Part shown: one piece after another, positions 20,036-40,835 of the stretch
How positions within the stretch are numbered: the stretch's first letter is position 1
Layout: the number at the start of each line of letters is the position of its first letter
Virus record (IMG/VR): IMGVR_UViG_3300024270_000061
DNA length: 64,000 nucleotides
From: a virus
Direction: 5' to 3' (one strand)
Program-made: the position numbers and the translations under genes
Notes under the pieces: generated by a model
Database searches by the model: none
Told to the model about the DNA's origin: nothing
Seen by the model: the letters and a program-made list of their open reading frames with translations, nothing else

Positions 20036-21112
20036 TTACTCGTCGTGTTGGATCAAGAAGAGAGGGTCAACAGCCTTGAAACTCTTTCTGCCATCCTGAG
20101 AACGGAAAACAATACCCTCACGAAGAGTATCGTGTAGGCTACTCTTTCCGTGGGCATATTCAAGAACTTCATCAACCGTCTTAGGAAGCTGCACGGCTGT
20201 ATCGATAATGGGCACAAATTCAAGGCCATGCAGTCCAACTACAGTCTTGGCATAAAGAGAATCCAATCTTCCCTTCGGATAGATCAGGTTAAAGACGTAA
20301 AGACCAAAGTCTGGAACTTTGTACTTATTGCCTTGGATCTTCGGGCCGATGCACTCTCCCTGAATGGCAACCCATTCCCATTCGCCAATCATTCCTTTTA
20401 GAGCATCCTCGATATGGTATTTATCAGCTACTTGCCAATAAGAGGAATTATCTCTGACCGGAAGCTGACGATTGCGAGAGCAAACGATGAAATCAAACTT
20501 ATCCTTGCAGAAAGGCCATTTTGACTTCTTTCTTACCAAGGCAAAAGTACCAGACTGGCCATCGATCTTCTCGGTCGCAATCCACTTTTCATCAGATTCC
20601 AGTATAAAAGGAATGTTTTGTATGCGTGTCTCATCTGTCTTGCTCAAAAACGACGGGAAGCCTCCCGCCGTCTTTTTAGGCAAAACCAGATTGCGGAACC
20701 ATTTCATCCGCATGAGAAATCTCGGATACTTCCGAGCAGGCTTAGCTTCAGGAACAACAGGATCAACATCCATTGTTCCCTCATACTGTTTGACCCCAAT
20801 GAGCTCAGTGACATCTTGGTCGTTTTTGTATTCACCAGGAGGAAGGATGCTCATCGGGAAACAAATTCCCTGAGAGACGACGTTGCCCATCTTCATCGTC
20901 TTGATTCGGAAATTCTTGCTCCGCAGGAATTCGAATTCAGGTTTCTCAGGCAGAACAGAGTCAATCTCTATGTATACGCACTGATCGCCGATTTCGTAAT
21001 CGCCCTTGCGAACAATGACATGCCAGCCATCTACGGTGGCCAGAACGATGCGGTCTTTACCCTCGATGGGCTGAAGACCAGCAATCGTTTTAACGCTGGC
21101 AAGATTACGCAT
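20036..21112 (-). CDS. ATP-dependent RNA ligase of the DraRnl/Rnl5 type (N-terminal OB module plus C-terminal nucleotidyltransferase)
   Basis: Motif I ATEKIDGQSGTF (KxDG) lies near residue 183, after a roughly 170-aa N-terminal domain. Motif IV-like REGIVFR. 358 aa. Confidence 0.7.
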   Translation of the reverse strand: MRNLASVKTIAGLQPIEGKDRIVLATVDGWHVIVRKGDYEIGDQCVYIEIDSVLPEKPEFEFLRSKNFRIKTMKMGNVVSQGICFPMSILPPGEYKNDQDVTELIGVKQYEGTMDVDPVVPEAKPARKYPRFLMRMKWFRNLVLPKKTAGGFPSFLSKTDETRIQNIPFILESDEKWIATEKIDGQSGTFALVRKKSKWPFCKDKFDFIVCSRNRQLPVRDNSSYWQVADKYHIEDALKGMIGEWEWVAIQGECIGPKIQGNKYKVPDFGLYVFNLIYPKGRLDSLYAKTVVGLHGLEFVPIIDTAVQLPKTVDEVLEYAHGKSSLHDTLREGIVFRSQDGRKSFKAVDPLFLIQHDE

Positions 21113-21560
21113 CTTGCTCCACCGCCGTTTCGTCAGCCTTCTTGGCCTTCTTGACCGGCTCTGGCTGGACTACCTTTCGTGCGTCCATGTAGCGAATAGC
21201 CGCCTTTGAAGAACCGAAGAGACGCTTGAGTACAGCCGCAGCAAAACCGCCATACTCGTCGAATTCCTGACCGTCGATACAACCGACAGTCGTTTTCACG
21301 CCATCAGCCCATTCGATTGTGGTATGCTTGTTGTTGAAATAGATTTTCTTGATCTCGGGAATCGCTCTCACAGGAATACCGTGATAGATTCCAAAGATAC
21401 CGTTCGCTTCAGGAAGGCGCACCGGACGAGTCGGAAACATGTCTGAGAGAATTGCATTGAACAGCGCATCTCCCGCCTTCCTTGTGGCACTCGGGTCATA
21501 GCCCCTTTCGTTTGCTTGCATTCTGGTCTTTCCTTTCTTCTTGTTGAAGTATTTCATCAA
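21105..21560 (-). CDS. hypothetical protein (151 aa)
   Basis: ORF with a basic C-terminus. Confidence 0.45.
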   Translation of the reverse strand: MMKYFNKKKGKTRMQANERGYDPSATRKAGDALFNAILSDMFPTRPVRLPEANGIFGIYHGIPVRAIPEIKKIYFNNKHTTIEWADGVKTTVGCIDGQEFDEYGGFAAAVLKRLFGSSKAAIRYMDARKVVQPEPVKKAKKADETAVEQDA

Positions 21561-22071
21561 GTGTAACAGGCTCGTAGTTGCGAACCATGCAGCCTACATT
21601 GAACATGTTGCACTTAATATCAAGTTGCTGGAGCTCGAACTTGTGATTCTCGGTCATGTTCCACTCATGAGAATTATGAACGTGACCGTAGAGCATAAAG
21701 GCTCCATAATGGTGACGGTTGAAGAATACGATAGGATAATGACAAAGAATCACATGAACATTGCCGGGAAGATTGATTTCTTTGTAGAAGCAAATTTCCT
21801 CAAAGCAATCTTTGATCTTGCCATCAACCTTATCGTGGTTGCCCTGAATGAGAATCTTTCTGCCTCGAAGCTGAGAGAAGATTTCATAGGTCTTCTGGTC
21901 ATCATACCAGCTAATATCGCCCAGAATATAGACGGTATCTTCATCCGTCACTTTGTTATTCCAGCGTTCGATCAGTACCTTATCCATTTCTTCAACGCTC
22001 GTAAACGGGCGATTGTCGAAGCGAATAATATTCTTGTGACCGAAGTGGAGATCGGAAGTGAAGTAAATCAT
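21496..22071 (-). CDS. calcineurin-like metallophosphoesterase
   Basis: DLHFGH, GDISWYDD, GNHD and GHVH motifs. Confidence 0.7.
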   Translation of the reverse strand: MIYFTSDLHFGHKNIIRFDNRPFTSVEEMDKVLIERWNNKVTDEDTVYILGDISWYDDQKTYEIFSQLRGRKILIQGNHDKVDGKIKDCFEEICFYKEINLPGNVHVILCHYPIVFFNRHHYGAFMLYGHVHNSHEWNMTENHKFELQQLDIKCNMFNVGCMVRNYEPVTLDEILQQEERKDQNASKRKGL

Positions 22072-22397
22072 GAAACAGACCTTCTTTCGTCAGTAGTCGT
22101 CATGCCGACAACACAACCCTGTCCAGCACGAGTGAGGCCGGAAACAAGGGCATCAAGAACGTCCTGAGACTCATCGACAAGGTATTCTCTGTATGTATGG
22201 GTTCCGTAGAGCTTTCCGCCCAGAAGCTCGTTGGCAATGATCGGCGTCGGAATATAGTATCCGTAATGCCGTGCCATATCAAGGATGTGTCTTCTGTGAG
22301 ATTCGTTCACGCAGATGATGGGAGCGTTTCTGAACTCACTGATTGCAAGAAGTCTGGTGGTTTTACCACCGCCGCGCCGAAGAATCAGGTTTCTCAT
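22068..22397 (-). CDS. small P-loop NTPase-like protein
   Basis: Walker A RRGGGKTT. Confidence 0.45.
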   Translation of the reverse strand: MRNLILRRGGGKTTRLLAISEFRNAPIICVNESHRRHILDMARHYGYYIPTPIIANELLGGKLYGTHTYREYLVDESQDVLDALVSGLTRAGQGCVVGMTTTDERRSVS

Positions 22398-22612
22398 GTT
22401 GCCCTCCTATATGATGTTAGATCGAATAGCGCCTACACTGTGTTGACACCCAGGGCGTTACCCTGAGTTTCTGAAAGGTTTTTACCTTCTGCTCAAAATA
22501 GACTGTTAAAAGAAGCCCAAGGAGACTATCGCTATGCGTGTCTCTTTGGACTTCTAAGAACAGCCGTCGAGTTGGCCAGTACCAAAGTTTCATGGTTCTA
22601 CCTCAAATATGG

Positions 22613-22642
22613 GTACAAAAAAGCAGCGGTGTGTGCCGCTGC
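22613..22642 (-). terminator. Rho-independent terminator
   Basis: Stem GCAGCGG/CCGCTGC with loop TGTGTG, followed on the minus strand by TTTTTTGT. Confidence 0.65.
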
Positions 22643-22655
22643 TTCGGTGGTGAGT

Positions 22656-23693: not shown

Positions 23694-23706
23694 CCGTGAC
23701 TCCTCC

Positions 23707-24144
23707 TCATGCCGCCATGCTGAGCTTGGCAGATTTTCTCTTAATCTCCTGAAACGATTCTTGATCGAGAAGATCCAGAGCGGATGTGGCGAGGAGGCTG
23801 GCGATAGCGATCTTGGCCATGTATTCCTTGGGGAGCTTCGTAATGTAGACGCCGAGCTTATCCTTGGAAACCGATACGGGGTTCTCGCAAATCACCATAC
23901 TATCCCGACGCAACCCGGTATCCTCCGCCTTTACGACCACATGGGTCGGCATATCCATCCTTTTAAGATTGGACGTTAGCGGGAGAACGATGACGTTAGG
24001 GCTATACGCATTGCCGACGTTGTTCTGGAAAATGACAGCAGGCCGCCAACCGGATTGCTCGCTGCCAGTTCCTTCGAAGCGACAGTTATAGACCTCGCCC
24101 CACTTCGGAGCAGGGGCTACTCTCTTGGCGTTGTTGGCTTCCAT
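23707..24144 (-). CDS. MazF/PemK/Kid-family endoribonuclease toxin homologue with a C-terminal extension
   Basis: GEVYNCRF..GSEQSGWRPAVIFQNNVGNAYSPNVIVLPLTSNL...RDSMVICENPVSVSKDKL follows the MazF/PemK pattern; about 35 extra C-terminal residues. Confidence 0.7.
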   Translation of the reverse strand: MEANNAKRVAPAPKWGEVYNCRFEGTGSEQSGWRPAVIFQNNVGNAYSPNVIVLPLTSNLKRMDMPTHVVVKAEDTGLRRDSMVICENPVSVSKDKLGVYITKLPKEYMAKIAIASLLATSALDLLDQESFQEIKRKSAKLSMAA

Positions 24145-24189
24145 GGCTTCTTGACCTCGTTTCTGGATATTTATTCTTGATCGACGAGT

Positions 24190-24220
24190 TCACAATACCA
24201 TAAAAAGTCGGACTTGTCAA
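24190..24220 (-). promoter_or_regulatory. sigma70-like promoter upstream of the MazF-like gene
   Basis: Minus strand: TTGACA, 17-nt spacer, TGgTATTGT (extended -10). RBS GAGGT precedes the ATG at 24144. Confidence 0.5.
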
Positions 24221-24280
24221 GAGGGTTTTCTGCAAATAGGCGGACTTCGGGTGAGCAAAAGGATAAATTTTACGAGATAT

Positions 24281-24634
24281 TTACTGTTGCGGGCAGTCGA
24301 AGTGAACGGTGACGCAGGTTCGAAGCTCATCATTGTCACCGCAGATGATGTTGTAATGGTCGCCTTCGAGCTCAATAGACTGAATCTGAGTGAGCTGCAT
24401 CCTATTGATGCCATCGGTAAACAAAATGACCGCCGGGAACTCTTCCACAGCGATCACTTCGGAGATATGTAACGTTGCCTGCACCGGCAACGCTTTGTCT
24501 TCTTCGCCAAGAGAGGCGTAGCGACAAGTTCGTGATGCAATATCACGCTTAAAATCATTGATGGTCATGATCGGCCTCCTTGTGAGCCTTGAAGATGTAC
24601 TTTGGATAATCGAAGAAAGAGCCTTCTTTGCCAA
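24281..24634 (-). CDS. hypothetical protein
   Basis: ORF; no antitoxin-like fold recognisable. Confidence 0.4.
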   Translation of the reverse strand: MAKKALSSIIQSTSSRLTRRPIMTINDFKRDIASRTCRYASLGEEDKALPVQATLHISEVIAVEEFPAVILFTDGINRMQLTQIQSIELEGDHYNIICGDNDELRTCVTVHFDCPQQ

Positions 24635-25709
24635 TTGCTTTCCCTACACTGTTAAGTCCATTCCAGAGCGCAACGAAGTTATACTTTTGCGGCTGACAGG
24701 CAAAGTCCTTATCAAGTAAACCATTATAGGTTTTTAGCAACGCTGGGAAAATCTCCTCACTTGACAGATTGCGTTTTTCTCGAATAGCAGGGAGGCAAGT
24801 TACTTGAAATTCCTCGACTTTCAGCCATTCGTCTTGCTCTTTTCTTGCCATGGGAATCTGTGCCAGAACATGAACTATCTTTGGCAGGAGAGAAACCCTA
24901 ACTGCAATAACGTCATCCTGCATCCAGTGCAATGTCCAGTCGGATGATTTGTTATATGACTCCAGCATAATCGGATATAGTGTTTCCTCCGTAAGAGGAA
25001 TAGATTTGTCGATCATTCCTCTAACTTTTCTGAAAAATTTAGGTTGATTAAGCCATTGAAGTTTGATCTTTACAGCAAGCTGTTCTACGGCTTTACGGAA
25101 AACTTCAGTATAGCTGATTACTTCCGATTCTTCAGAATTGTTGGCGGACAGTTCAAAGAATTTCATTTCCGATAATTCCCTATCTCCAAATATGCGCTTC
25201 CGTTCTTGCGAATGGATGCCATTCTTTGAATAATAAATCCAAGCAGCTTGCATATCTCTGAAATGATTTGCATCCAGCGGAGGCGTTGTCGTATTTGCTT
25301 CAGCTTTGCGTAGCATTACACGATATTCCAGTTGCTGTTGACTTGGCTCTTCTGTATAGAGAATATCGTCAATGAATTCAGTCATCTGAGAAAGAGTTGG
25401 CATAGGTAAGTCATTTCGAATGATTCGAATTTCGAACAGTTCTTCTTGCCTTGCTTGTTGCCGCTTTTTTGCTTGTTTATTGCTTGCAAAAGCCCAAATA
25501 GGAATGCTAAAAACTCCTACAAAAGCTAAAATGCCAGCAAGCTCCTCAGAAAAGTTTGCAATGGTGGCAAATAGAGTAACAAAAAACACAACAAAAAAGA
25601 CGCAGCCGATGCCTCCCAGTTTTCCTAAGTTGAATTCCTCTTCGCCGATTTTGTAAACAACGTACAAGACGCCGAGAACAACCCATCCAATACCAGCTAA
25701 GATACCCAC
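24555..25709 (-). CDS. membrane protein (two or more N-terminal TM helices)
   Basis: ILAGIGWVVLGVLYVVY and LGGIGCVFFVVFFVTLFATI helices; the rest is unknown. Confidence 0.5.
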   Translation of the reverse strand: MGILAGIGWVVLGVLYVVYKIGEEEFNLGKLGGIGCVFFVVFFVTLFATIANFSEELAGILAFVGVFSIPIWAFASNKQAKKRQQARQEELFEIRIIRNDLPMPTLSQMTEFIDDILYTEEPSQQQLEYRVMLRKAEANTTTPPLDANHFRDMQAAWIYYSKNGIHSQERKRIFGDRELSEMKFFELSANNSEESEVISYTEVFRKAVEQLAVKIKLQWLNQPKFFRKVRGMIDKSIPLTEETLYPIMLESYNKSSDWTLHWMQDDVIAVRVSLLPKIVHVLAQIPMARKEQDEWLKVEEFQVTCLPAIREKRNLSSEEIFPALLKTYNGLLDKDFACQPQKYNFVALWNGLNSVGKAIGKEGSFFDYPKYIFKAHKEADHDHQ

Positions 25710-25725
25710 CTCTCACGCACCAACC

Positions 25726-25959
25726 TTATCCACTTCGTGCGCAGTCAATGTGTTCCATAGCATCGTTGATGGAATCGATGGCCGTCTGGAGTTCATCGAT
25801 GGCTTCTTCCATTATCTCTCCTCGTTCGCTACTTTGGAGATTTTCAGGAAGATTATCAAAACTATCTTGCTCTTCATCCTTGGCACGTTCCACGATAGAA
25901 ACGGCTCTGCCAAGGAGCGAATGAGCTTCTGATAATCTTGCTCGTCTTTGCTTATTCAC
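25726..25959 (-). CDS. hypothetical small helical protein
   Basis: ORF. Confidence 0.35.
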   Translation of the reverse strand: MNKQRRARLSEAHSLLGRAVSIVERAKDEEQDSFDNLPENLQSSERGEIMEEAIDELQTAIDSINDAMEHIDCARSG

Positions 25960-26003
25960 TCATTGCCGCACCTACCTAATTATAGAATATATCGGCTGGA
26001 AAA

Positions 26004-26666
26004 TCAACCCATCGAAATGACGAGTTTGTGTTCCAGAAGGTAGGAGCTCTTCTCGACTTTGGTTACGACAACAGGAGACGGGCCGAACTTGGTGTCCGCA
26101 ATGACGGTAGAACCTGCCCGAACGAACTCATACAGGTCGTAAGGAACACGCCAAGAGAATTCCTGCCCATCAGCGCTGTGCTTGCCATAGGCATACAGGA
26201 AATACGGCTCGTGCATCTCTTGGATTTTGCGAAGCTCATCAATTTGCTTGGTGAGAATCTTGACCTGCTCCTCATGGTGTTGCATCTTCCTCTGAACACA
26301 CTCCAGATTATGCAAAGCGGCTTTGCGAGACAACTGGAGAGCACCAACTTTAGACTCGATGCAAACCTTGGCCGCCAACATATCTGTCTTAGGCGAAACG
26401 CTTAGAACGGACGGCTGGATATTTGCTGGAATAACACAGACAACATAGAAAGGCTTCGTTGGATCTTCGTTGCGCTGAGATTCATCGACCATCGAAGGCT
26501 CAATGGTCATTTCGCTGACACGATTCTGATCGACAAGATGGAACTTCGTCTTTCCATCACTGCCCTTGAGCTTGAGGAACCAGCCACCATCCTTGCCGAG
26601 GAGTTCAGAAAAAGCGGGATCTCGGTTCTCGTGAACCTGAATCTTACAAAGCTGACCTTGGTACAT
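26004..26666 (-). CDS. hypothetical protein (220 aa)
   Basis: ORF. Confidence 0.5.
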   Translation of the reverse strand: MYQGQLCKIQVHENRDPAFSELLGKDGGWFLKLKGSDGKTKFHLVDQNRVSEMTIEPSMVDESQRNEDPTKPFYVVCVIPANIQPSVLSVSPKTDMLAAKVCIESKVGALQLSRKAALHNLECVQRKMQHHEEQVKILTKQIDELRKIQEMHEPYFLYAYGKHSADGQEFSWRVPYDLYEFVRAGSTVIADTKFGPSPVVVTKVEKSSYLLEHKLVISMG

Positions 26667-26707
26667 GACTACATCTCCTTATCTTCTTATAGGTATTGGG
26701 CTGAAAA

Positions 26708-27126: not shown

Positions 27127-27137
27127 AAATTCATGGG

Positions 27138-27785
27138 TTAAACGGCGTGGCGTTCAATTTTCTTTTGTGCCGCAAAAGCCTCCAGGGCATCTTCGACAGA
27201 ATCAGAAACATTGAAGGACGGGAAGAAATCCACATTGACATCAATCATGCAGCGGTCAAGTGCAGAGGAAGCCTCGTCTGCTTCTCTGGCAAGATTTTTT
27301 GCCAGTCTCTTAACACCGTTGCGATCAAAGTCGATAGTGGTAATTTCCTTGATGTCGTAGAAGTAACGCACCTGATCGCCTGTTGCATTGAATTTGAAGT
27401 CGCTGCCCTGAGTTTTACATTCAGATGGCTTGATGGCGCAAACATGCTCCAGAGTTGCAGCCATACCTCGACGCAGTGAGTTATGTGCGGCTTCTGCATC
27501 AATATCAATGGCGCAACCTGCCTTGGCCTTGCCAATAGCAATGGCAAGTGCGTGCTTTTCTTCCATGACAGCCTTCATGAACTCAATGATAGTGCCATTG
27601 CTCTGAGCGTATGCTCTTTCCTTAGTGGCATCCACAGTCTCATCCTGAGCTTCTGGATTCGCACTCTTTCGAAGATGTTCCTGTTTGACGCAAACCAGGT
27701 TACGTCTGTCGTTGAGGTACGCGGAGATCGAGGTGAACAGCATAGCCAAGTAGTTCTGGTATCGGAAGGATTCCTTGAGATTCAT
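27138..27785 (-). CDS. hypothetical protein (215 aa)
   Basis: ORF. Confidence 0.5.
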   Translation of the reverse strand: MNLKESFRYQNYLAMLFTSISAYLNDRRNLVCVKQEHLRKSANPEAQDETVDATKERAYAQSNGTIIEFMKAVMEEKHALAIAIGKAKAGCAIDIDAEAAHNSLRRGMAATLEHVCAIKPSECKTQGSDFKFNATGDQVRYFYDIKEITTIDFDRNGVKRLAKNLAREADEASSALDRCMIDVNVDFFPSFNVSDSVEDALEAFAAQKKIERHAV

Positions 27786-27791
27786 GCGTTT

Positions 27792-28280
27792 TCATTCCTT
27801 TCTTTCGGTATTCATCAGCATATCCACAGCATATTGTATATGCTTGGTTTCCAAACCCCACCCATAGAATGAAGTGTGAACTAAATGTGGAAGATGCACA
27901 TTCATATCACTATCGTCATCGAGAATGACGTAGGATTCAACGGAAATATCCCTATGGTGATTAAACCATGCGGAAATATCATCGCCGCGTTCCTTGCCCG
28001 TATAGGGTGTATCGGAGTGAATGGACAGCCCGTATTCAGCAAGCTGCTGGACGAGGTGAGCCCTTGCTTTCGGGATTTTTCTCCATGATGAAGATAGAAC
28101 AATCGTCGCGCCTGTCGCACTAACGATTTGCTTTAGGCAGGCAATCGCTCGTTTATCCAAGATGTCTTCGTAGAAAACGCGGACGCCTTGCTCGCTAAAC
28201 ATCTTTTCGGCAAACGAATTACTGTTCAACACACCGTCAACGTCCAGAAAAATCACGCGCATGTCTGACCCTCCACACAT
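27792..28280 (-). CDS. HAD-family phosphatase
   Basis: VIFLDVDGVLNS (DxDG) and ILDDD motifs. Confidence 0.6.
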   Translation of the reverse strand: MCGGSDMRVIFLDVDGVLNSNSFAEKMFSEQGVRVFYEDILDKRAIACLKQIVSATGATIVLSSSWRKIPKARAHLVQQLAEYGLSIHSDTPYTGKERGDDISAWFNHHRDISVESYVILDDDSDMNVHLPHLVHTSFYGWGLETKHIQYAVDMLMNTERKE

Positions 28281-28466
28281 TCCTGCGGCAATGTGAAAGT
28301 CGGTTTCCAGATAGCGACAATCGTTCTGGATTTCTGATCCACAAAACCGATGCCACCATCGTAGAGTGTCATATTCAAGTCATGCTTAGCACACGCAGCC
28401 TGAATATCTGCTACCAAAGCGGAGACTTTTTTCTGGATTTCAGTTGTTTCCATAGCTATAACCCCC

Positions 28467-29237
28467 TCAATCGATGGTTTTCAGACCCGGATCGTAACTT
28501 GGCGGCATCGAGAGCTTGAAAAGGTTGGCTCGATGCAAACGGTCAATTCGGTTCTTTGTAATCTGGCTTTCGCATTTACCAGTACGGATATAGGTATCCA
28601 GCTCGGCATAGGTAAAACCAAGGTTATCCTCGTCCGTCTTTCCACAGAGTCCGTCACTGGGAACCTTGTCTACCAGCTCAGGCGGCAAACCGCATTCGTA
28701 GCCAACCGCCTTTACCTCTTCAACAGTGAGCTTCGCCAGAGGGCAGAAGTCTCCGGCGCTATCACCGTAGCGTGTAGAGTAACCTACCCAATCCTCCGAC
28801 AGATTGCAAGTGTTGGCTACTCGGCCATTCAAGGACTGAGACACAGCATACAGCGTAGCCATTCGGATTCGAGGAGGCAGATTCACCATTGTCTGGTCAC
28901 TCAACGTGATACCAGCGCCTCCAATAGCATTGAGTACGTCACTCACAGCCAAGGTGACAGGCACCATAAAGTGCTTAATTCCCAGGTGTTCGCAGAGTTT
29001 GAAGCTATCATCGATGTCCAGCTGCGCCAGATTTGGCATCAGGACGCCAATGACCCGCTCTCCTCCGAGGGCTTCCTTGCACAAAGTAGCAACGATATTG
29101 CTATCCTTGCCTCCAGAAATGCCGATGACAGCATTGCAGTCTTTGCCATTGGATTCAAACCACTCTCGAATCCACTGTACAATTTCTTCTTTTATTTTCT
29201 TGGCATCAAACTTGTTCATGTTTACCCCATACTTCAT
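28467..29237 (-). CDS. nadE: NH3-dependent NAD+ synthetase
   Basis: PP-loop GISGGKDS and NadE-like layout; 256 aa. Confidence 0.85.
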   Translation of the reverse strand: MKYGVNMNKFDAKKIKEEIVQWIREWFESNGKDCNAVIGISGGKDSNIVATLCKEALGGERVIGVLMPNLAQLDIDDSFKLCEHLGIKHFMVPVTLAVSDVLNAIGGAGITLSDQTMVNLPPRIRMATLYAVSQSLNGRVANTCNLSEDWVGYSTRYGDSAGDFCPLAKLTVEEVKAVGYECGLPPELVDKVPSDGLCGKTDEDNLGFTYAELDTYIRTGKCESQITKNRIDRLHRANLFKLSMPPSYDPGLKTID

Positions 29238-30030
29238 CGATAATGTAGTCTCTTGCTTCAGAGAAAATCGGAATATTCAGATCAGGTGTCCACTTGGATC
29301 GTTGTGCGCCATTTACTTCATAGCTGCGTTTGACAATGCAAAGACCGGCCTTTTGATTTATGGGCAGACTGTGCCAATCAAACCCTTTCTCTTTCATCAT
29401 CTGCAGCATCTGAGCGCAGTTCTTCTTGTGTAGTTCTTTATGCGAATACATCGATCTTGCACAAGACTCGACACTATTCCGCACGGCATCTTGCTGGCGC
29501 CAAATAAAGTAATTGACGACCTCATGCTCCGGCAACAGGAAAGCTCTGCTATCGAACATAGCCTGATCGATATTGCGGAAGTAGGTGTTATAGTCCTTCT
29601 TGAACTTTTCCTGCTTCTCTTCTGACATAAACTCAAGAGACAAAGGCAAATAGTGATGCTGCTGAACGTAAGACCGGTAGCTGCGATTGAATGCACGAGT
29701 TGCAATTGACGCCGTAACACTGGCAATCTTTTGCAAATTGTTGCCGAACCATGCCTGCGTGGTAAGCTCATCGTCGTTCCTGAGAACGAGCGAAATCTCG
29801 TCGGACTGTGTATAAGCGAGCTTACAGCCCTCCACATTACGGCAAAGTTCAATGGCAACTTCCTTCATGGGCTCAGAAACAGCGCTGTCAAATGGACGCT
29901 TGAACCCCCTGGTAAAAGTATGGAATGCCTTTCCGTCCACACGAACGATGACCGGCATTCTTCTCGGAAGATAGAATCTATAGGCGTTTTCGTATTCTTT
30001 CATACGGTCGCCCAAGGAATCACGAGACAT
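29206..30030 (-). CDS. Thg1-like protein (tRNA 3'-5' nucleotidyltransferase)
   Basis: SLGDRMKEYE...VRVDGKAFHTFTRGFKRPFD...LAYTQSDEISLVL matches Thg1 family signatures. ATG at 30030 is preceded by GGAGGA. Confidence 0.75.
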   Translation of the reverse strand: MSRDSLGDRMKEYENAYRFYLPRRMPVIVRVDGKAFHTFTRGFKRPFDSAVSEPMKEVAIELCRNVEGCKLAYTQSDEISLVLRNDDELTTQAWFGNNLQKIASVTASIATRAFNRSYRSYVQQHHYLPLSLEFMSEEKQEKFKKDYNTYFRNIDQAMFDSRAFLLPEHEVVNYFIWRQQDAVRNSVESCARSMYSHKELHKKNCAQMLQMMKEKGFDWHSLPINQKAGLCIVKRSYEVNGAQRSKWTPDLNIPIFSEARDYIIDEVWGKHEQV

Positions 30031-30424
30031 GATGTCCTCCTTTTCCCGGCCCGCCCATTGGCATTCCGGGGAATATTGTTTTTCCTTGATATTCCTTACA
30101 TTTAGAACCATCAAAGTAATAAGCCCATGTACTGTCGTCCGAACCACGGAAAGTGATATATGAACCGGCTTCAACGAATGGAGCAATTTGATTGAACATC
30201 GCTTCGATCTCATCGCTGTAAAATTTCTGGTACTCATAGCACATTGAAATGATATTGCCGTGCTCATCTATTTCTACAGTAAGCCCAAACTCCGTCATAA
30301 CCTCTGGAAGATCATCTTCCTTTTTGTATTCCGGGTACTTACCATGAAGGGCTTCGAGTGCCTCTGGAAATTTAATTCGCGGGATGTAGAAATCTGACTG
30401 TTCAGAGTTCGCGTAATAACCCAT
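30020..30424 (-). CDS. hypothetical protein (134 aa)
   Basis: ORF. Confidence 0.45.
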   Translation of the reverse strand: MGYYANSEQSDFYIPRIKFPEALEALHGKYPEYKKEDDLPEVMTEFGLTVEIDEHGNIISMCYEYQKFYSDEIEAMFNQIAPFVEAGSYITFRGSDDSTWAYYFDGSKCKEYQGKTIFPGMPMGGPGKGGHHVS

Positions 30425-30436
30425 ATCAATCTCTCC

Positions 30437-31054
30437 TTAATGCTCGTTGAAGCAAACCGCTTCCCCATTTTTCAAATCCCAACAGGAACACCCAGACATA
30501 ACACAGTCCCCGCAATAATTCTGGCATTGGAAGGCGTTTGCCGGTATGCCTGTATTGTCGCCTTTCTTGAATCTGACATAGGCCATTGGGAGGTTGTGAG
30601 GATTTTCGGGAATAAAAGAACCCCACGCACTAAATACCATGCGGAGGTTCTCAGGAAAAACTTTATGTATGTTGAGATACTCATTGACCATCTCAAATTT
30701 CTTGGTGAAGCACAGGAACTTCGTATCAGGAAGCCTCTTCGCGGTATCCACCATCATCTCAAGGTACTTAATATCGGGAATATCGCCCGAGGAGTGCCAG
30801 CGAAAGAAGCGGCTATGGAACGCAGAAATGATGATGTCACGCTGGAACATCGCAGGATCTTCATTCCAAATATCGATGTTCTTCTGGAGAAGAGACTTGT
30901 TGTGGGAAAAGCACCACCGTCCCTTCCTGGCATAACACTTAGCCACGCACGGAGCATCTGGTCTGCATGAGCAGACAGGAGGAAGGCTGACGGATGGAAT
31001 ATCTGCGCCGAGCTTCGTTACTCCTTTGGAAATATGAACATGTTCTGTTACCAT
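30437..31054 (-). CDS. hypothetical Cys-rich protein (205 aa)
   Basis: CSCRPDAPCVAKC and CQNYCGDCVMSGCSC clusters. Confidence 0.45.
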   Translation of the reverse strand: MVTEHVHISKGVTKLGADIPSVSLPPVCSCRPDAPCVAKCYARKGRWCFSHNKSLLQKNIDIWNEDPAMFQRDIIISAFHSRFFRWHSSGDIPDIKYLEMMVDTAKRLPDTKFLCFTKKFEMVNEYLNIHKVFPENLRMVFSAWGSFIPENPHNLPMAYVRFKKGDNTGIPANAFQCQNYCGDCVMSGCSCWDLKNGEAVCFNEH

Positions 31055-31072
31055 AGCTTACCTCTTTCTTGA

Positions 31073-31567
31073 TTACATCTTGGGCAATTCGTAGAGCGTT
31101 ACGTCCAAGCCCCCGAGTTCTTCTTCGATGATTGTATAGACGGTATCCCAGTTGCCGCCTCCTCGGTCGCAGCCAATTCGATAAGGCAATGCGATTTGAG
31201 GTTCTTTGCCCGATTTTTGCCGGATGGCATCAGCAAAAATGCTCAGCTGAGCCAAGCAACTTCTGAATGCCCCATAGTCCGTATATTGCTTGCCATCATA
31301 TCCGTACTTATTCTGAGCGAACATATTGGCGATATAAATCCGCTTGCCATCCGGAAGATTCTCGGATGATAGCTGCGTGTTTCCCAGCAAGCTCTCTGTC
31401 TTTCCTTTGACACTTCGGCAAGCACTTTGATAGTTGGCGTATGCGCCTGGAAATAACATCCGAACCTGCTTGGCAACGCCGGAACCCATCACTCCCTGGC
31501 AATTTACCTGATGAGCAATGATGTCGGCATTACTTGCGAATAAATCTCCGATTTTATGTTGTATCAT
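31073..31567 (-). CDS. macro-domain protein (ADP-ribose binding/processing)
   Basis: IIAHQVNCQGVMGSGVAKQ and the macro-domain core. Confidence 0.8.
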   Translation of the reverse strand: MIQHKIGDLFASNADIIAHQVNCQGVMGSGVAKQVRMLFPGAYANYQSACRSVKGKTESLLGNTQLSSENLPDGKRIYIANMFAQNKYGYDGKQYTDYGAFRSCLAQLSIFADAIRQKSGKEPQIALPYRIGCDRGGGNWDTVYTIIEEELGGLDVTLYELPKM

Positions 31568-31721
31568 TGGACTTCCTCACTCTTCAACAGATGGATTTTT
31601 CGCGTCTTTCTCATTTCGTTCGGAATCTCCGCTTGCTTTACAACAGCAATACATGAGAATACCGGCGAAAAGAACGAGAACCATCGAGATTGCAAACAGC
31701 AAAAGTCTTCCTGACATCTAA

Positions 31722-32153
31722 TCACTTCTTTCCGTCTGCGATAATAGAGTTTTCTCCGGCATCGCAAGCTCGCTTGTAGTAGACGCGACCTTCCATTTTG
31801 CTTTCCGCCTTCCTCATCGCTCCAAGACACTGCTTTAGCTGATTGACCGCATTGGTTTGAGACGCAATCCAGTTCATCAATGGTGTCAGCGTATCAATAA
31901 TGTCTTTGGCGACTCGGCGGCGTTGGCGAATTTTTCGAAGCTCCACCGCCGCATGAGCACGTTCATGATACGTCCACTCGCAAAGTTCAATTTCATGAAG
32001 CAGATCCTGCGTCTTTTTATCGCAGTAATCCAATTCATTTTGAGCCATTTTGAGGGACTCATTAGCCAAAGAAAACATATTCAGTGTCTCTTCAATGGAC
32101 TGGCTCGTTACTTGAGGAGTGAGCTTATCCAGATCGTCAAGCACTGCGTTCAT
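31722..32153 (-). CDS. hypothetical coiled-coil protein
   Basis: ORF; internal ATG start after the Pnkp stop. Confidence 0.4.
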   Translation of the reverse strand: MNAVLDDLDKLTPQVTSQSIEETLNMFSLANESLKMAQNELDYCDKKTQDLLHEIELCEWTYHERAHAAVELRKIRQRRRVAKDIIDTLTPLMNWIASQTNAVNQLKQCLGAMRKAESKMEGRVYYKRACDAGENSIIADGKK

Positions 32154-34344
32154 TGACTGCCTCCTGATAATACTTGTTTCGGAGTTCGACAATGTTGGTA
32201 GAAGGATTACTCTCGGCATACTTTCTGACGAAAGCATAGAAATAATTCGTCAACGGAGTTTGCAAAGCGCCGGTGTTACGGAACTGTCCATAGTTGAATA
32301 CGCTTTGGGCTACTCCGCGAAGAAGTTTCCATGTGGCGTAATAATCCGTCTTGATCTTGAGCATGAATCCGACAGCATCTCTGATGACATATCCTTCAAA
32401 GGGAATGGCATCGGGACGGGCAAGAAGATTCTGAGAATTCTGATACAGGGAAAGGAATTCTTCCCAGTTATTGATGACACAGGCTCTCTTTTTCACTTCC
32501 AGTCCAAGCTCTTCTGCGGCACTGACGAGTTGAACATAGCTGCAAGCCGAGAATTCCAGTTGGTTTTCCACCATGTCCAGAAGATAGAGATGCTTCTCTC
32601 GGTATTCAATGATGTGTGGATCATTGACGGGATCAACCGCCTCGAACAGGAGCGTTACATCATGTTTCTTCAGGTACTCTGTCAGCCTCTGCTTCTGCTC
32701 ATCAGTGAACATGGAACGGAAAAGTTCTGCCATCGCACCGTCAACAGAAGACTTGGTGGTCATGAACAAGGAGCCCGTAGACTGGTCATAAGAAACCAGC
32801 CCGAGGAAACCATTCTCTTTTTCGAAGACTTCAACAGGGAACACGAGTTTCTTCTGAAGCACAGACAGCTTGGTGTTCTGTCTTTCGTTGACTGCGAAGA
32901 ATTTTTCATATCCACGAGCCACAACCTTCATGTTGGTGGTGTCGATATACAAACCGCGAGCACGAACTGTAAGCGAATTCCACTTCTTATCCATAAAGGC
33001 TGCCCGAGTGAAGTTGAAGGAAGAAATATGACCGAAGGACTTTTCATGAATGAGGGGACTCTGCCGCATCCTCGCAACGAGATCGGAAATGATCTCTCTT
33101 TCAGTAGATGCAACGGGTTGCGCATCTTTGGGTGGCTGAACAACGGGCTGTTCGGCGGAGGGATAATTAACCACCTTCCAGCCTTCTTCAGACAGGACGA
33201 CGGTTCTCAGCTCTCCTCCACGTTCTACAGCGCCTTCGAGACAGAAACAATGTTCCGAAACATGAGTCGGCAAACCGGAAACATTGCGATGACCGAACAC
33301 CTGATAATACATGGGCGGAGCGGATTTTTCAAAGGACTCAACACATTCCTCCATCTGCTCGTAAAAGCCAACGCCGGAAATCATCTGGCAGGCAGGAACA
33401 AAGTCGAGATGGCCGAGAGAAGACCAGTCTGAAATACCTCCATGAGTGCAGAGTACAGTGCGACCACGATATGTATAATAGGAACACTGTCGGATACGGC
33501 GGTAGAATTTTCTTATTTCTACCATGGAAATGCCGGCTGCATCAAGCTGGAATCCAGTCTTCGAATTGAACTCCCTTGAAGCAGATTGGCGACCGTTCGC
33601 CCACTCCCACAGATGAACCTCGTGATTTCCTTCAAGGAAACACACATTGGGGCGTTCTGAAATATCCATGAGGAACTGAAGAACCTTCGGAGAATCCGGG
33701 CCGCGATCAGCATAATCTCCGCAGAAAATATAGGCGGTCTTATCATCGATGCCATCCACAGGATTTTCCCCGAACACCTTCTGGAGAGTGGAGTAGCATC
33801 CGTGAATATCACCGATGTGTACGACCTTATCATATTCGCTCAAATCGAAAGGAGTAGTAAATATCTGCTCCCAATCATCGACGGTGATTCTCTTGATTCC
33901 GGCTGGAATATTCTGTGTCTGGAAACGTGAGTATACCTTTTCAATGTAGTCCTGTGGAACGATTTTGAGCGGAGGCCGCTGGGCGTTACGGCGGAGGGTT
34001 TCCTCCAGAGGAATATCCGTCATGTCCAGGCAATAGATCCGATAGCGGTATTGATGCGCCAATTCTTTGTAGCGCGTCATTTCGCTCGTCTTGGAATTGC
34101 AGGCATCGATAATCGTGAAATCACCGCGCTGCATCCTGCGTTCAAGCATGGCAAACAAGGTATCCCAGACAATTCTATCGTTCTTCTGGGATATGACGGG
34201 CTTACCTTGTGGATCAAGTGCCGGGGAGGCAAAAAGGGAACGAATCTTATCAGACGAAAGTGCATGGTCAGACAGGCCGTTCTTCTCAATCCAAGTGGAT
34301 TTGCCGCAACCTGGAGCACCGCGCATCAAAATGAGAATTCGCAA
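32137..34344 (-). CDS. Pnkp-like RNA repair enzyme: P-loop kinase, binuclear metallophosphatase and ligase-like adenylyltransferase
   Basis: N-terminal GAPGCGKST; central GDIHG, GDYADRG, GNHE; C-terminal KENG (KxNG) lysine motif. 735 aa. Confidence 0.75.
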   Translation of the reverse strand: MRILILMRGAPGCGKSTWIEKNGLSDHALSSDKIRSLFASPALDPQGKPVISQKNDRIVWDTLFAMLERRMQRGDFTIIDACNSKTSEMTRYKELAHQYRYRIYCLDMTDIPLEETLRRNAQRPPLKIVPQDYIEKVYSRFQTQNIPAGIKRITVDDWEQIFTTPFDLSEYDKVVHIGDIHGCYSTLQKVFGENPVDGIDDKTAYIFCGDYADRGPDSPKVLQFLMDISERPNVCFLEGNHEVHLWEWANGRQSASREFNSKTGFQLDAAGISMVEIRKFYRRIRQCSYYTYRGRTVLCTHGGISDWSSLGHLDFVPACQMISGVGFYEQMEECVESFEKSAPPMYYQVFGHRNVSGLPTHVSEHCFCLEGAVERGGELRTVVLSEEGWKVVNYPSAEQPVVQPPKDAQPVASTEREIISDLVARMRQSPLIHEKSFGHISSFNFTRAAFMDKKWNSLTVRARGLYIDTTNMKVVARGYEKFFAVNERQNTKLSVLQKKLVFPVEVFEKENGFLGLVSYDQSTGSLFMTTKSSVDGAMAELFRSMFTDEQKQRLTEYLKKHDVTLLFEAVDPVNDPHIIEYREKHLYLLDMVENQLEFSACSYVQLVSAAEELGLEVKKRACVINNWEEFLSLYQNSQNLLARPDAIPFEGYVIRDAVGFMLKIKTDYYATWKLLRGVAQSVFNYGQFRNTGALQTPLTNYFYAFVRKYAESNPSTNIVELRNKYYQEAVNERSA

Positions 34345-35696
34345 GAGAACACCTCCTTGTTTTCATTCAAGTAATTGACAATATGGACACGTTCATTTTT
34401 CAAAGAGCCATCAATTACAGCATCAAGAACCTTGTTCAGAACAAAGCCGACTCTTTTCCCTTCCGCTATATTGAGCAACTCCATTACATCTTTTCCGCTG
34501 ATTTCCAAATCTTTCAGACTAAAGCATTGGTTTTGCTCGACAATCTCATAGGCAATAGCTGCCAGAGATACGCAGCGTTCAATTCGAGACTGCTGAGTGC
34601 TCTCCTTATGAGCGAGAATATCAGCCATTCTGATTTCAACCAGTCTTGAAAATTGGAGTTCACCGATTTTGTTCAACCATCGGCGCACTGTCTTCGGGGT
34701 AGGCTCAATAACGGCATCGTGGAACAACACAAGTTCGAGTACGTCATGCTTGGTTTTGTTGTCAAAACGCAATCTGTCAAGAACCTTTTCGGCAAGATCT
34801 CGACTGTATACTCCGTGACCATAGAAGTGCCCTCCGTTTTCATCCGTGGTATAGCAACATGGCTTGCCAATATCATGAAGGAATAACGAGAGCTTTATAA
34901 CAATGTCATTTAATCCGCAGTTTTCTACGGCATGACAAATGTGATCGTATACGGTGTACTCGTGATACCTGTTATTTTGGTCAAATCCAATGCAGGGACT
35001 CATTTCTGGAATGATGACAGAGATAACATCGCTATACTCCAGTAAGATTTGAAGAACTCCTCGACCACAGAGCATCTTGCATAGCTCGGTCTGAATTCTC
35101 TCTGCTGCAATGTTCAGGAGCTTTTCTTTATTCCTATGGATTGCCTGAGATGTTTTCTCTTCAATGGCAAAACCATATGTAGAAGCAAAGCGCATTGCTC
35201 TCAGGATTCGAAGCGCATCTTCTCCGAATCTGTCATCTGGATTTCCAACGCATGAAATGATTCTTCTATTCAGGTCGTCCTGACCATGAAAAGGATCGAT
35301 AATTCTTTCTCCGTCATAGGCCATTGCATTAACAGTGAAATCACGGCGTGCTAAATCCAGCTCTATGTTTTTCACGAATTCTACACTATCAGGATGTCGG
35401 CTATCAGAATAAAGTCCGTCAATTCTGAAAGTCGTAACCTCATACTGCTCAGAATCCCCGAGATTAACCGTGATTGTTCCGTGCTGTAAGCCTGTATCAA
35501 TCGTCTTGATATTGCGTTTTGCGAAGAAAGCCTTCATTTCAAGAGGAGTGGCTGATGTGCAAATATCCCAGTCTTTCGGTTCAAGGTCAAGCAAGCTGTC
35601 TCGCACGCATCCACCAACGACATAGGCATCAAACCCGGCCTTGCGCAAATCCTGTATGATGAAATTGGCGCCGTGCGGGATTTGGATATTACGCAT
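34326..35696 (-). CDS. cca: CCA-adding tRNA nucleotidyltransferase with HD domain
   Basis: GGCVRDSLL head motif; RRDFTVNAMA; HD LFLHDIGK. Confidence 0.85.
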   Translation of the reverse strand: MRNIQIPHGANFIIQDLRKAGFDAYVVGGCVRDSLLDLEPKDWDICTSATPLEMKAFFAKRNIKTIDTGLQHGTITVNLGDSEQYEVTTFRIDGLYSDSRHPDSVEFVKNIELDLARRDFTVNAMAYDGERIIDPFHGQDDLNRRIISCVGNPDDRFGEDALRILRAMRFASTYGFAIEEKTSQAIHRNKEKLLNIAAERIQTELCKMLCGRGVLQILLEYSDVISVIIPEMSPCIGFDQNNRYHEYTVYDHICHAVENCGLNDIVIKLSLFLHDIGKPCCYTTDENGGHFYGHGVYSRDLAEKVLDRLRFDNKTKHDVLELVLFHDAVIEPTPKTVRRWLNKIGELQFSRLVEIRMADILAHKESTQQSRIERCVSLAAIAYEIVEQNQCFSLKDLEISGKDVMELLNIAEGKRVGFVLNKVLDAVIDGSLKNERVHIVNYLNENKEVFSCEFSF

Positions 35697-36711
35697 CGAT
35701 AGCTCTCCTGTTCACTTCGATAACAAATTCCTCGACCTTCTTCATGTCCGGATGCTTTGGGAGGTTGGTATTTGCCTTCGCATATTCCAGACGCTTCTCG
35801 TATTCGCTCACCATCTCAAAGAATTCAGGCGCATATGAACCGTCTTCGCGCTGAAATTTACCGTTTCGGATACTGAGCAGAAAATCTCTGTCGTTGTATC
35901 GATAGGTGTTGATTTCGCCTTTCTCCAAGATGTCCAGACACAGAAGATAGAGACGAATCAGGTGCATGGCGTGCTTGTTGAGATGATCGTCGTCCTTCTT
36001 ATGATTGCGATGGTGCAACTTCTCGTAATCTCGAAGTACACTGGACAGGGTGTTAAGCATGATGCTGAACTCTCTGGCAGGATACTTTTCAAGGTGAATG
36101 TTGCAGAACACTTCCTTATCAAGATCGTCACGAGAACTCTCGTCGGTAAAGAGGCTGATACAACCCTGATCGAAATCGGAATACTTGGAAGCGAATTCCC
36201 GAAGGGCTCGTTCCAGTGCCCCTCTGATGTGTTCCTCTTTCTTTGCCTGCGGCAACCTGTCTCTGGCGAGCGCGTTTTCCAAACGGCGAAGCTGCTGAGT
36301 AGCATATCCTCCGAACGAACTGACCGCTCTTTGCGAAAGGAACAGGCTTGCGTTGTCGATCATCATGCGGCCTGCATCGGAAACATAAAAATAATGCTCC
36401 GGTTTGCAGCCGAGCATTTCAATCGTATTGGGATTGCAGTTCAGAAGCAAGCTGACCAGTTTGTTGAAGCCATAGATGGTAGTGTCGGTCTGCGTGTTTA
36501 CGACCTGTTCAAAATTTGAGAGGCCGAGAAGATCACTCTTGCTGTTCATTGCACAGCCTCTTACATCTACATCCGATGTTTCAATGTTGGTTCCATAGGC
36601 ATGACTTCCGCCAAGCGTAAGGAACATAAGTCGGCCTGCGAGGTGAGGATTGGTTCGCAAGAAGTCATATTCCTCTCCGTTTACCATTTCTTTGATTTGC
36701 TCAAGAGTCAT
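35689..36711 (-). CDS. Pol-beta superfamily nucleotidyltransferase of unknown specificity
   Basis: LGGSHAYGTNIETSDVDVRG (GS...DxD) motif. Confidence 0.55.
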   Translation of the reverse strand: MTLEQIKEMVNGEEYDFLRTNPHLAGRLMFLTLGGSHAYGTNIETSDVDVRGCAMNSKSDLLGLSNFEQVVNTQTDTTIYGFNKLVSLLLNCNPNTIEMLGCKPEHYFYVSDAGRMMIDNASLFLSQRAVSSFGGYATQQLRRLENALARDRLPQAKKEEHIRGALERALREFASKYSDFDQGCISLFTDESSRDDLDKEVFCNIHLEKYPAREFSIMLNTLSSVLRDYEKLHHRNHKKDDDHLNKHAMHLIRLYLLCLDILEKGEINTYRYNDRDFLLSIRNGKFQREDGSYAPEFFEMVSEYEKRLEYAKANTNLPKHPDMKKVEEFVIEVNRRAIDA

Positions 36712-36723
36712 ATACTCGCTCCT

Positions 36724-37158: not shown

Positions 37159-37168
37159 ATGTATTGGT

Positions 37169-38662: not shown

Positions 38663-38675
38663 ATTTCCCTTCCTT

Positions 38676-40827: not shown

Positions 40828-40835
40828 ATTACGGG

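Follow-up and report, generated by a model that had tools for sequence, protein, structure and literature searches.

A 64,000-nt stretch of the virus record IMGVR_UViG_3300024270_000061 (hereafter the window, whose positions are used for all coordinates) carries what we interpret, with a probability of roughly 0.6, as an accessory island of a large gut-Clostridia phage encoding a multi-enzyme kit that restores tRNAs, and perhaps RNAs of other kinds, after breakage or trimming. The island is flanked by an NAD+-reconstitution module and by the tRNA genes of the phage. The kit comprises an RNA ligase of the Rnl5 type, a fusion of kinase, phosphatase, and RNA ligase (hereafter KPL), a CCA-adding enzyme, a Thg1-like protein (TLP), and the Pol-beta nucleotidyltransferase RlaP. 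Most likely, it serves to heal tRNAs that the RNA-targeting immunity of the host has damaged, to restore their lost nucleotides, and to seal them. The identities of the enzymes come from profile, sequence, and structure matches, and we infer their substrates and their biological role.

An earlier note on this DNA, made from the sequence alone, had named five repair enzymes between positions 20036 and 36711. All five are encoded by the minus-strand open reading frames (ORFs) to which it assigned them, contain the motifs it quoted, and passed our profile and structure tests (Table 1). The ligase it had called Rnl5/DraRnl-type is indeed an RNA ligase of this family and not an ATP-dependent DNA ligase. 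It aligns end to end with NgrRnl of Naegleria (5cot, residues 5-338 of 340, E 1.7e-35), and the lysine of its KIDG motif falls on the KLDG of NgrRnl. The 358-residue protein has an OB domain at residues 4-87 and the RNA_ligase domain at 175-348, with no C-terminal domain, in line with the described family layout of an N-terminal OB-like domain before the nucleotidyltransferase (NTase) domain and no C-terminal appendage (PMC4408790). It scores 146.7 bits against the DraRnl model TIGR02306, which is just below the equivalog cut-off of 151.15. The CCA-adding enzyme passes the NCBIfam equivalog model PRK13299 (300 bits for a cut-off of 290) and has the motifs GGCVRD..DWD, RRD, EDALR, and HD; its CCA-adding specificity is assigned from sequence. 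The TLP scores 107.6 bits against PF04446 (cut-off 29.2), has the catalytic VDG and SDE motifs, and matches the TLP of Bacillus thuringiensis (BtTLP, 4kgk) with an E of 1.3e-73. We corrected its start from 30267 to 30030, where an ATG lies behind a GGAGG ribosome-binding site; the resulting 274 residues agree with the metagenome gene call.

The additional Pol-beta nucleotidyltransferase of the earlier note turned out to be RlaP, with its GGS...DVD motif. The KPL ligase follows 1.3 kb downstream of this gene, and the overlapping CCA gene is all that separates the two. RlaP also lies directly upstream of the CCA gene in four related loci (L006, L047, L060, and L067), showing that the pair recurs as a unit. 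Members of the RlaP family add one or two nucleotides to the 3'-OH of damaged RNA (PMC12776372), and RlaP restores the aminoacylation of over-damaged tRNA, which we count in favor of repair.

The fusion had been described as Pnkp-type, and this holds for its healing modules. KPL consists of an N-terminal P-loop polynucleotide 5'-kinase, a central binuclear metallophosphatase of the lambda-phosphatase type, and a C-terminal ATP-dependent RNA ligase, which is the order of the domains in bacterial Pnkp. The motifs GAPGCGKST, GDIHG, GDYADRG, GNHE, KENG, EGYVIR, and LKIK are present, the C-terminal domain has every adenylyltransferase motif, and the catalytic motifs of all three modules are invariant across 34 homologs (46-93% identity). 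Both healing modules belong to the type seen in Clostridium thermocellum Pnkp (CthPnkp), and the phosphatase module has all the CthPnkp ligands for both the monoesterase and the diesterase activities. The description does not extend to the ligase. The bacterial Pnkp model TIGR04075 gives only 80.7 bits (cut-off 750) and aligns over profile positions 10-324 only, covering the first 305 residues of KPL, i.e., the kinase/phosphatase region. No ligase chain of CthPnkp or Rnl4 was recovered with the KPL ligase, be it with phmmer (E<=10), in a profile search (E<=1), or among the top 50 matches of Foldseek.

The KPL ligase ranks first with Trl1/Rnl6-like enzymes, next with Rnl1, and not with Rnl4. 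Its domain profile matches the ligase domain of Trl1 (Trl1-LIG) with E 2.4e-25 and E 2.3e-20, in an alignment that extends through the C-terminal helical domain, whereas T4 Rnl1 can be aligned over the NTase domain only. The protein thus has two features of Rnl6, an Rnl1-like adenylyltransferase domain and a distinctive C-terminal helical domain; according to the structural literature, the C-domain of Trl1 occurs in Trl1-LIG only and is conserved in the ligases of fungi. The residues K508 (of KENG), E567, E649-G650, and K662/K664 are invariant and align with motifs I, III, IV, and V of Trl1. The triad H227/R334/R337, which enforces the 2'-PO4 specificity of Trl1 (PMC11404444), aligns with H576 (invariant), K672 (at least 90% conserved), and R675 (invariant), the first arginine of the triad being a lysine in KPL. 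H576 lies nine residues past the glutamate of motif III (E567), and T4 Rnl1 is gapped at this histidine. On these alignments, KPL is best described as a chimera of Pnkp-like healing modules and an Rnl6-like sealing module. The freshest point of our analysis is that its ligase appears to retain the Trl1 C-domain and the positions of the 2'-phosphate-binding triad.

The earlier note had remarked that the Pnkp occurs without its Hen1 partner. Neither Hen1 nor any other methyltransferase was found in the window ORFs that we scanned, and around KPL at 80 bacterial loci no partner gene is conserved within 4 kb and no Hen1 is seen. This is no puzzle: with a KPL ligase that is Trl1/Rnl6-like and not Rnl4, Hen1 would not be expected, and the KPL family as a rule lacks it, this phage being no exception. 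We rejected KPL as a true Pnkp/Hen1 enzyme because of the clade of its ligase and the lack of the partner in these scans.

KPL may further represent the Rnl6 clade of fungal Trl1 in prokaryotes and phages, possibly as a 2'-PO4-dependent ligase, which we consider quite unlikely. If the triad were functional, KPL would seal 3'-OH,2'-PO4 ends like the eukaryal tRNA-splicing ligase, and a fungal-type pathway of "healing with a 2'-phosphate mark" would operate in phage counter-defense. The 2'-phosphate would then have to be removed separately, a task that might fall to the HAD, metallophosphoesterase, or macro enzymes of the island in combination with its NAD+ genes, and the KPL family would indicate a prokaryotic source of the eukaryotic tRNA ligase. 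We give this idea little credit because the phosphatase has all the ligands for complete phosphate removal and because no Tpt1/KptA 2'-phosphotransferase was found among the ORFs scanned, where the sole match resembling an ADP-ribosyltransferase is the small Arr-like protein (25.4 bits). Where Rnl6 goes with a 2H cyclic phosphodiesterase and Tpt1, the partner domain in KPL is a metallophosphatase. Splicing was rejected as a task of the Trl1-like ligase: the 88-nt tRNA-Thr and tRNA-Lys genes of relatives have long variable arms, not introns, and the window tRNAs have no inserts.

The biochemistry of the homologs (T4 Pnkp/Rnl1, CthPnkp (PMC2190708, PMC3675462), Trl1-LIG, NgrRnl, BtTLP, and RlaP (PMC12776372)) suggests how the parts could work together. 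A host RNA-targeting effector would cleave a tRNA and leave 2',3'-cyclic-phosphate and 5'-OH ends. The phosphatase module of KPL would take off the cyclic phosphate, possibly helped by a stand-alone HAD_SAK_2 phosphatase, a separate metallophosphoesterase, a cRec protein, or the HD domain of the CCA-adding enzyme, and these extra phosphoesterases would allow a wider variety of ends to be cleared. The kinase module would phosphorylate the 5'-OH. If nucleotides were lost, RlaP would restore one or two of them at the 3'-OH before the ligase module of KPL sealed the break. Clipped 3'-CCA tails would be rebuilt by the CCA-adding enzyme, 5'-truncated acceptor stems would be refilled by the TLP with the 3' strand as template, and nicks inside duplex regions would be sealed by Rnl5. 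Finally, the phage tRNAs would act in parallel as spares. The cleavage of tRNA tails is a known immune mechanism (PMC12851939).

The state of the phage tRNAs favors such a role. The earlier note had counted 17 tRNA genes beside the enzymes. ARAGORN and Rfam both report 17, but the cluster starts 4 kb past the end that had been given, and one of the genes is aberrant. The 16 canonical tRNAs are Ser (two), Lys, Asn, Thr (two), Phe, Leu (two), Gln, Ala, Trp, Arg, Gly, Pro, and Tyr; tRNA-His is not among them. All of them have the CCA encoded and fully paired acceptor stems, and no intron or insert was found in any tRNA of the window. Hence, the enzymes are not needed for the biogenesis of these tRNAs, and we could rule out that the CCA-adding enzyme and the TLP are required to finish them, since 16/16 encode the CCA and have paired 5' ends. 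The tRNAs that the note had listed as classic targets of anticodon nucleases are present, but this set fails to discriminate insurance against nucleases from other readings.

The 16.7-kb span from 20036 to 36711 is not a single repair operon. The core is a tight array of 16 genes (27138-39485), in which each gap is of at most 18 nt or the genes overlap, with overlaps of 8 nt between RlaP and CCA, 19 nt between CCA and KPL, and 17 nt between KPL and the next gene. The first genes of the array (from 39485) are Prs-like and then Nampt-like, and form a pair resembling the NAD+ reconstitution system NARP1. The repair genes are interspersed with this pair, with further NAD salvage genes, and with a MazF toxin gene. 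Rnl5 is separated from the tight array by integrase-like, MazF, and unknown genes. The window as a whole is a section of a large phage genome with a GC content of about 47% and nearly all its genes on the minus strand; it also encodes NrdD, PolIII-alpha, DnaG, DnaB, a PD-(D/E)XK nuclease, and an ERF recombinase. A scan for promoters and terminators between 20001 and 40000 was uninformative, as promoter-like sites were no commoner than in shuffled sequence.

A role in counter-defense, which the earlier note had stated outright, is what the genomic context and the literature point to. Directly upstream, the repair genes are preceded by the pair that has the signature of NARP1, a counter-defense proven by experiment, and DarG-like macro and NADAR domains are present. 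Iyer et al. 2021 (PMC7824862) interpreted the tRNAs, Rnl1/Rnl2 ligases, kinases, phosphoesterases, RlaP, CCA-adding enzymes, and Thg1 of jumbo phages as the answer of these phages to immunity that cleaves tRNAs. The claim fits this published interpretation and, in our data, keeps the standing of an inference.

To place the kit among phages, we counted the families by tblastn in 50,697 phage records. Matches were found in 305 records for KPL, 162 for TLP, 298 for RlaP, 333 for Rnl5, and 514 for the CCA-adding enzyme. Were the families independent, around 4e-5 records would be expected to have KPL, TLP, RlaP, and Rnl5 together; the grouping of these repair families is not due to chance. The genus lists of the five families barely overlap and the combination is therefore unusually complete. 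Kits with several such parts are nonetheless found in other phages: the Prevotella Lak phages are in the match lists of TLP, RlaP, and CCA, and Caulobacter phages are also in these three lists; Unciuleac & Shuman described DraRnl/Rnl5 homologs in Caulobacter phages (PMC4408790). The earlier note had called Thg1-like repair rare in phages. It is uncommon, but well known, given the 162 records that match, many of whose genes are already annotated as tRNA-His guanylyltransferase.

The architecture of KPL is common to more than 3,000 homologs, many of them chromosomal in gut Lachnospiraceae and Oscillospiraceae. The family is also found in staphylococcal phages of the Kayvirus type and in SPbeta-like phages of Bacillus subtilis, such as SPbetaL2 (L116, 9001-11199). 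The KPL of the SPbeta-like phages is 39% identical, is annotated only as "hypothetical protein", and has the anti-Gabija gene gad1 at a distance of about 9 kb. These phages could provide a tractable genetic model for the family. The closest isolate by protein is the Alicyclobacillus phage KKP_3916, with 42% identity for KPL. A megablast search with positions 29000-36800 gave no nucleotide match to known phages and no near-identical isolate. Copies of RlaP that are 100% identical, with the gene order unchanged, were found on metagenome contigs of 83-173 kb, and another protein of the window is also on contigs of up to 358 kb.

Several points weigh against a kit dedicated to damage by host immunity. 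The kit is mosaic, as related phages hold different subsets: in the same region, the relative L014 has PncA-like, Prs-like, GP88, KPL, and MazF genes, i.e., only KPL from the repair enzymes, L016 has GP88, NadE, TLP, NADAR, KPL, MazF, and Rnl5, and L006 has RlaP, CCA, and KPL. In many Lachnospiraceae, KPL is a stand-alone chromosomal gene with housekeeping-type neighbors, and such enzymes therefore also work outside the context of phage defense. One may suppose that the kit provides housekeeping and quality control of the phage's own tRNAs, i.e., their maturation, end maintenance, and turnover. The proximity of the 17-gene cluster, the routine repair of tRNA 3' ends by CCA-adding enzymes, and the ordinary chromosomal genes of Lachnospiraceae are in line with this idea, which we nevertheless regard as improbable. 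With the CCA encoded, the stems intact, and introns absent in 16/16 tRNAs, maturation needs neither kinase, phosphatase, ligase, nor TLP, nor the addition of CCA. Besides, the neighboring NARP1-like pair, DarG-like macro domain, and NADAR domain belong to families linked to counter-defense. The breaks may also have an internal source, the phage MazF, in which case KPL and its partners would re-join chosen targets or limit collateral damage to tRNA and rRNA. A mazF gene is conserved a few kb from KPL in L014 and L016 and lies within 10 kb of it in L008, L032, L036, and L038, MazF-type ends can be repaired by a kinase, phosphatase, and ligase, and RtcB of E. coli repairs 16S rRNA cut by MazF (Temmel et al. 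2017, as cited in bioRxiv 10.1101/312249). Yet only 2/80 bacterial KPL loci have a MazF homolog nearby, and the phage MazF with its small upstream ORF resembles an ordinary toxin-antitoxin pair, making this a very improbable account of the kit.

The part of Rnl5 in tRNA repair is the least secure element of our interpretation, to which the following points are also adverse. The gene adjoins those of CinA, ERF, PD-(D/E)XK, DnaB, DnaG, and PolIII-alpha, in L016 it lies between PD-(D/E)XK and DnaB, and the physiological substrates of Rnl5 enzymes are unknown according to PMC4408790. According to the same study, these enzymes need RNA on the 3'-OH side only, and a part in the repair of RNA-patched DNA has been proposed. 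Rnl5 might thus stand outside the tRNA kit and seal nicks at RNA-DNA junctions during phage replication or recombination, which we consider possible, if on the unlikely side. The links to RNA repair that speak against it are that Rnl5 is at about 6 kb or less from a Band-7 gene in four IMG/VR loci, that homologs of this Band-7 gene elsewhere have TLP (seven loci) or tRNA genes (nine) within that distance, and that surveys of jumbo phages group the ligases assigned to Rnl2 with RNA repair. As for the tRNA cluster, it could serve mainly to match the codon usage of the phage and less as a source of replacements for cleaved tRNAs. Phage tRNAs are classically explained in this way, and most anticodons of the cluster have U34 or G34. 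We find it unlikely here, as codons served by the cluster include rare ones (TTA for 5% of Leu, TCA for 12% of Ser, and CCA for 18% of Pro, among 13,953 codons of the window), although this is a weak argument: the codon-usage test of the tRNA set did not favor codon supply but decides nothing. We therefore retain the repair of tRNAs damaged by host immunity as the most likely function of the island.

The cleavage of tRNAs and the clipping of their tails are increasingly recognized as immune outputs, e.g., of PrrC/RloC, PARIS, retron-Eco7, Cas13a, and Cas12a3. To our knowledge, the phage answers that have been studied experimentally are essentially T4 Pnkp/Rnl1 and replacement tRNAs. In T4, Pnkp and Rnl1 reverse the cleavage of tRNA-Lys by PrrC. 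KPL differs from this pair in having the three activities on one polypeptide, in its phosphatase, which is a binuclear metallophosphoesterase and not a HAD, and in its ligase, whose C-domain cannot be aligned with that of T4 Rnl1 and which has the histidine past motif III that T4 Rnl1 lacks. It differs from Clostridium thermocellum Pnkp/Hen1 by a ligase that is not Rnl4 and by the lack of Hen1 among the window ORFs scanned. It resembles fungal Trl1 in the alignment across the C-terminal helical domain, in which the 2'-PO4 triad of Trl1 falls on H576/K672/R675. However, the order of the domains is reversed, the ligase being C-terminal, a metallophosphatase stands in place of the 2H cyclic phosphodiesterase, the first arginine of the triad is a lysine, and no Tpt1 was found. 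The phage TLP shares VDG and SDE with BtTLP, but has an insert of about 35 residues (121-155), adjoins NadE, and accompanies a tRNA cluster without tRNA-His.

The concept of a phage RNA-repair kit and its parts list are already published (PMC7824862; Burroughs & Aravind 2016 as cited there). The sets of Burroughs & Aravind 2016 (NAR 44:8525) and Iyer et al. 2021 (Viruses 13:63, PMC7824862) were given the same counter-immunity interpretation and share with this island the tRNAs, ATP-dependent RNA ligases, polynucleotide kinase, RlaP, CCA-adding enzyme, Thg1, macro domains, and NAD+ salvage, as well as the HAD (Swiss-army-knife), calcineurin-like, HD, and cRec phosphoesterases. Relative to these sets, the uncultured gut-Clostridia phage studied here, found on contigs of 123-173 kb, groups more parts in one place than most relatives, and its healing and sealing activities belong to a single fusion protein whose ligase is Rnl6-like. 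A single uncultured gut phage thus unites nearly all the predicted repair activities: healing of 5' and 3' ends by several phosphoesterase folds, 3' restoration by RlaP, rebuilding of the CCA, 5' refilling, and two types of ligases. Since the island is contiguous with an NAD+-reconstitution module, it offers a compact test bed for the cooperation of these activities. The KPL family, which is uncharacterized, abounds in Clostridia of the human and animal gut as well as in the phages of these bacteria, and its Trl1-like ligase bears on the origin of the fungal tRNA ligase, an antifungal drug target.

Table 1. Repair enzymes, tRNA genes, and other features of the window discussed in the text.
Feature	Positions	Strand	Evidence
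Rnl5 (DraRnl/NgrRnl) nick-sealing RNA ligase	20036-21112	-	PHA02142 OB E 6.7e-28; RNA_ligase PF09414 E 1.6e-18
KPL (kinase-phosphatase-ligase)	32137-34344	-	735 aa, start codon TTG; AAA_33, Metallophos, and RNA_lig_T4_1 (Pfam)
Class II CCA-adding tRNA nucleotidyltransferase with HD domain	34326-35696	-	Pfam PolyA_pol, PolyA_pol_RNAbd, tRNA_NucTran2_2, HD
Thg1-like protein (TLP), templated 3'-5' nucleotidyltransferase	29206-30030	-	Pfam Thg1 PF04446 E 5.5e-31
RlaP, RNA-ligase-associated Pol-beta nucleotidyltransferase	35689-36711	-	PF10127, 65.9 bits (cut-off 23)
tRNA cluster	40737-48322	-	17 genes by ARAGORN, 17 Rfam tRNA hits; canonical ones 50-76 bits
Aberrant tRNA-like RNA	46782-46858	-	Rfam tRNA 34.9 bits
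HAD_SAK_2 phosphatase, stand-alone "Swiss-army-knife" RNA-repair HAD	27792-28262	-	PF18143 E 9.5e-26; DVDG nucleophile motif
Stand-alone metallophosphoesterase	21496-22071	-	phrog_547 "phosphoesterase" E 6.9e-49; DLHFGH, GD, GNHD, and GHVH motifs
cRec cyclic-phosphate-processing receiver protein, just upstream of the tRNA cluster	49022-49420	-	PF20274 57.7 bits (cut-off 27)
DarG-like macro domain	31073-31567	-	NCBIfam DarG E 9.2e-18; PADLOC DarG 5.5e-19; phrog_335 E 2.2e-45
SPFH/Band-7-flotillin protein, within the tRNA cluster	43807-45300	-	Pfam Band_7 and Flot
NARP1-like NAD+ reconstitution pair	37169-39485	-	Adps-like 38676-39485, then Namat-like 37169-38662; 13-nt gap
PncA-like, NadE, and CinA/PncC-like genes of the same island	39501-40130, 28467-29237, 19467-20015		
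NADAR domain and small Arr-like ADP-ribosyltransferase	1231-1935 and 41054-41398	-	Arr-like 25.4 bits (Pfam threshold 25)
MazF/PemK endoribonuclease toxin	23707-24144	-	PF02452 E 8e-23
65-aa ORF upstream of MazF, likely antitoxin	24217-24414	-	position
Cys-rich GP88-family protein	30437-31054	-	PF17338
Retron-type reverse transcriptase	51051-52193	-	PADLOC RT_II-A E 1.1e-42

Five further parts went unmentioned in the earlier note: the HAD_SAK_2 phosphatase, the metallophosphoesterase, the cRec protein, the DarG-like macro domain, and the Band-7 protein. A role of the HAD_SAK family in RNA repair has been described (PMC7824862). The metallophosphoesterase is a candidate for an extra 2',3'-end phosphoesterase; its homologs lie within 10 kb of KPL in 10 of the 80 bacterial loci, five of them at about 50-170 bp downstream of the KPL match. 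The cRec family is predicted to clear 2',3'-cyclic ends (PMC7824862), and the window protein is another predicted processor of RNA ends or ADP-ribose derivatives. The DarG-like macro domain is probably an ADP-ribose-processing enzyme, whose link to RNA repair is uncertain.

The Band-7 protein is a possible scaffold for RNA repair. Among the homologs found at 19 loci of viral contigs (L097-L115), seven have a TLP within about 6 kb, four Rnl5, two the metallophosphoesterase, and one HAD_SAK, so that 11 of the 19 are near TLP or Rnl5; at nine loci, tRNA genes lie within this distance. In the window, the gene is at 1.5 kb from the aberrant tRNA-like gene, while no aberrant tRNA was called beside its homologs elsewhere. 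Burroughs & Aravind predicted that Band-7 proteins and a tRNA-like RNA, encoded beside an RNA ligase, act as a repair cofactor, as cited in bioRxiv 10.1101/312249. The aberrant RNA of the window has intact D and T arms, a 7-bp stem in the anticodon arm with a 6-nt loop (GGGAAA), and neither anticodon nor CCA. Four strain variants retain its gene, with a single compensatory change (C:G to A:U) and two changes from Watson-Crick pairs to G.U wobbles. The RNA might serve as a decoy or as a cofactor instead of being the product of a pseudogene. An exact-pattern search for this gene in IMG/VR gave no match.

The genes of the NARP1-like pair have the Pfam signature PF14572, PF00156, and PF13793, then PF18127 and PF04095. 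Both this signature and the order of the genes, Prs-like then Nampt-like, are those of the NARP1 operon, which has been demonstrated by experiment (Osterman et al., bioRxiv 10.1101/2024.02.11.579819); the likeness is one of Pfam signature and order, and the Pfam scores of the Adps-like gene are near or below the cut-offs. Unlike in NARP1, the pair is joined here by PncA-like, NadE, and CinA/PncC-like genes and is contiguous with RNA-repair genes. Together, the NAD genes suggest an extended NAD+ salvage set, in which no adenylyltransferase was found. Of the remaining proteins, the DarG-like macro domain and the NADAR domain both belong to ADP-ribosyl hydrolase families; together with the Arr-like protein, they might provide anti-DarT or other functions related to ADP-ribosylation.

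For four ORFs of the region, no match exceeded the family thresholds: 24555-25709 (searched in PHROG, Pfam, NCBIfam, and PADLOC), 27138-27785 (Pfam, PHROGs, and NCBIfam), and both 26004-26666 and 21105-21560 (Pfam and PHROGs).

A few minor observations concern the neighborhood of these genes. The GP88-family gene is repeatedly linked to KPL and NadE (L014, L016, L060, and L069). The retron-type reverse transcriptase is kept in the relative L014 (1-499), and a ThiF/E1-like gene lies near it in the window (53324-54103). Within the tRNA cluster, tRNA-Leu(CAA) (43141-43217, minus strand) is only 77 nt long and lacks the long variable arm. In the related phage L099, the 88-nt tRNA-Thr(UGU) and tRNA-Lys(UUU) have long variable arms (12231-12318 and 12534-12621). 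Such unusual architectures might affect the recognition by nucleases or synthetases. Between the tRNA genes lies a gene for a GIY-YIG homing endonuclease (47326-48123, minus strand), which some strain variants have and others lack. The variants differ in their tRNAs as well, with Trp missing in L118 and an extra Met in L119.

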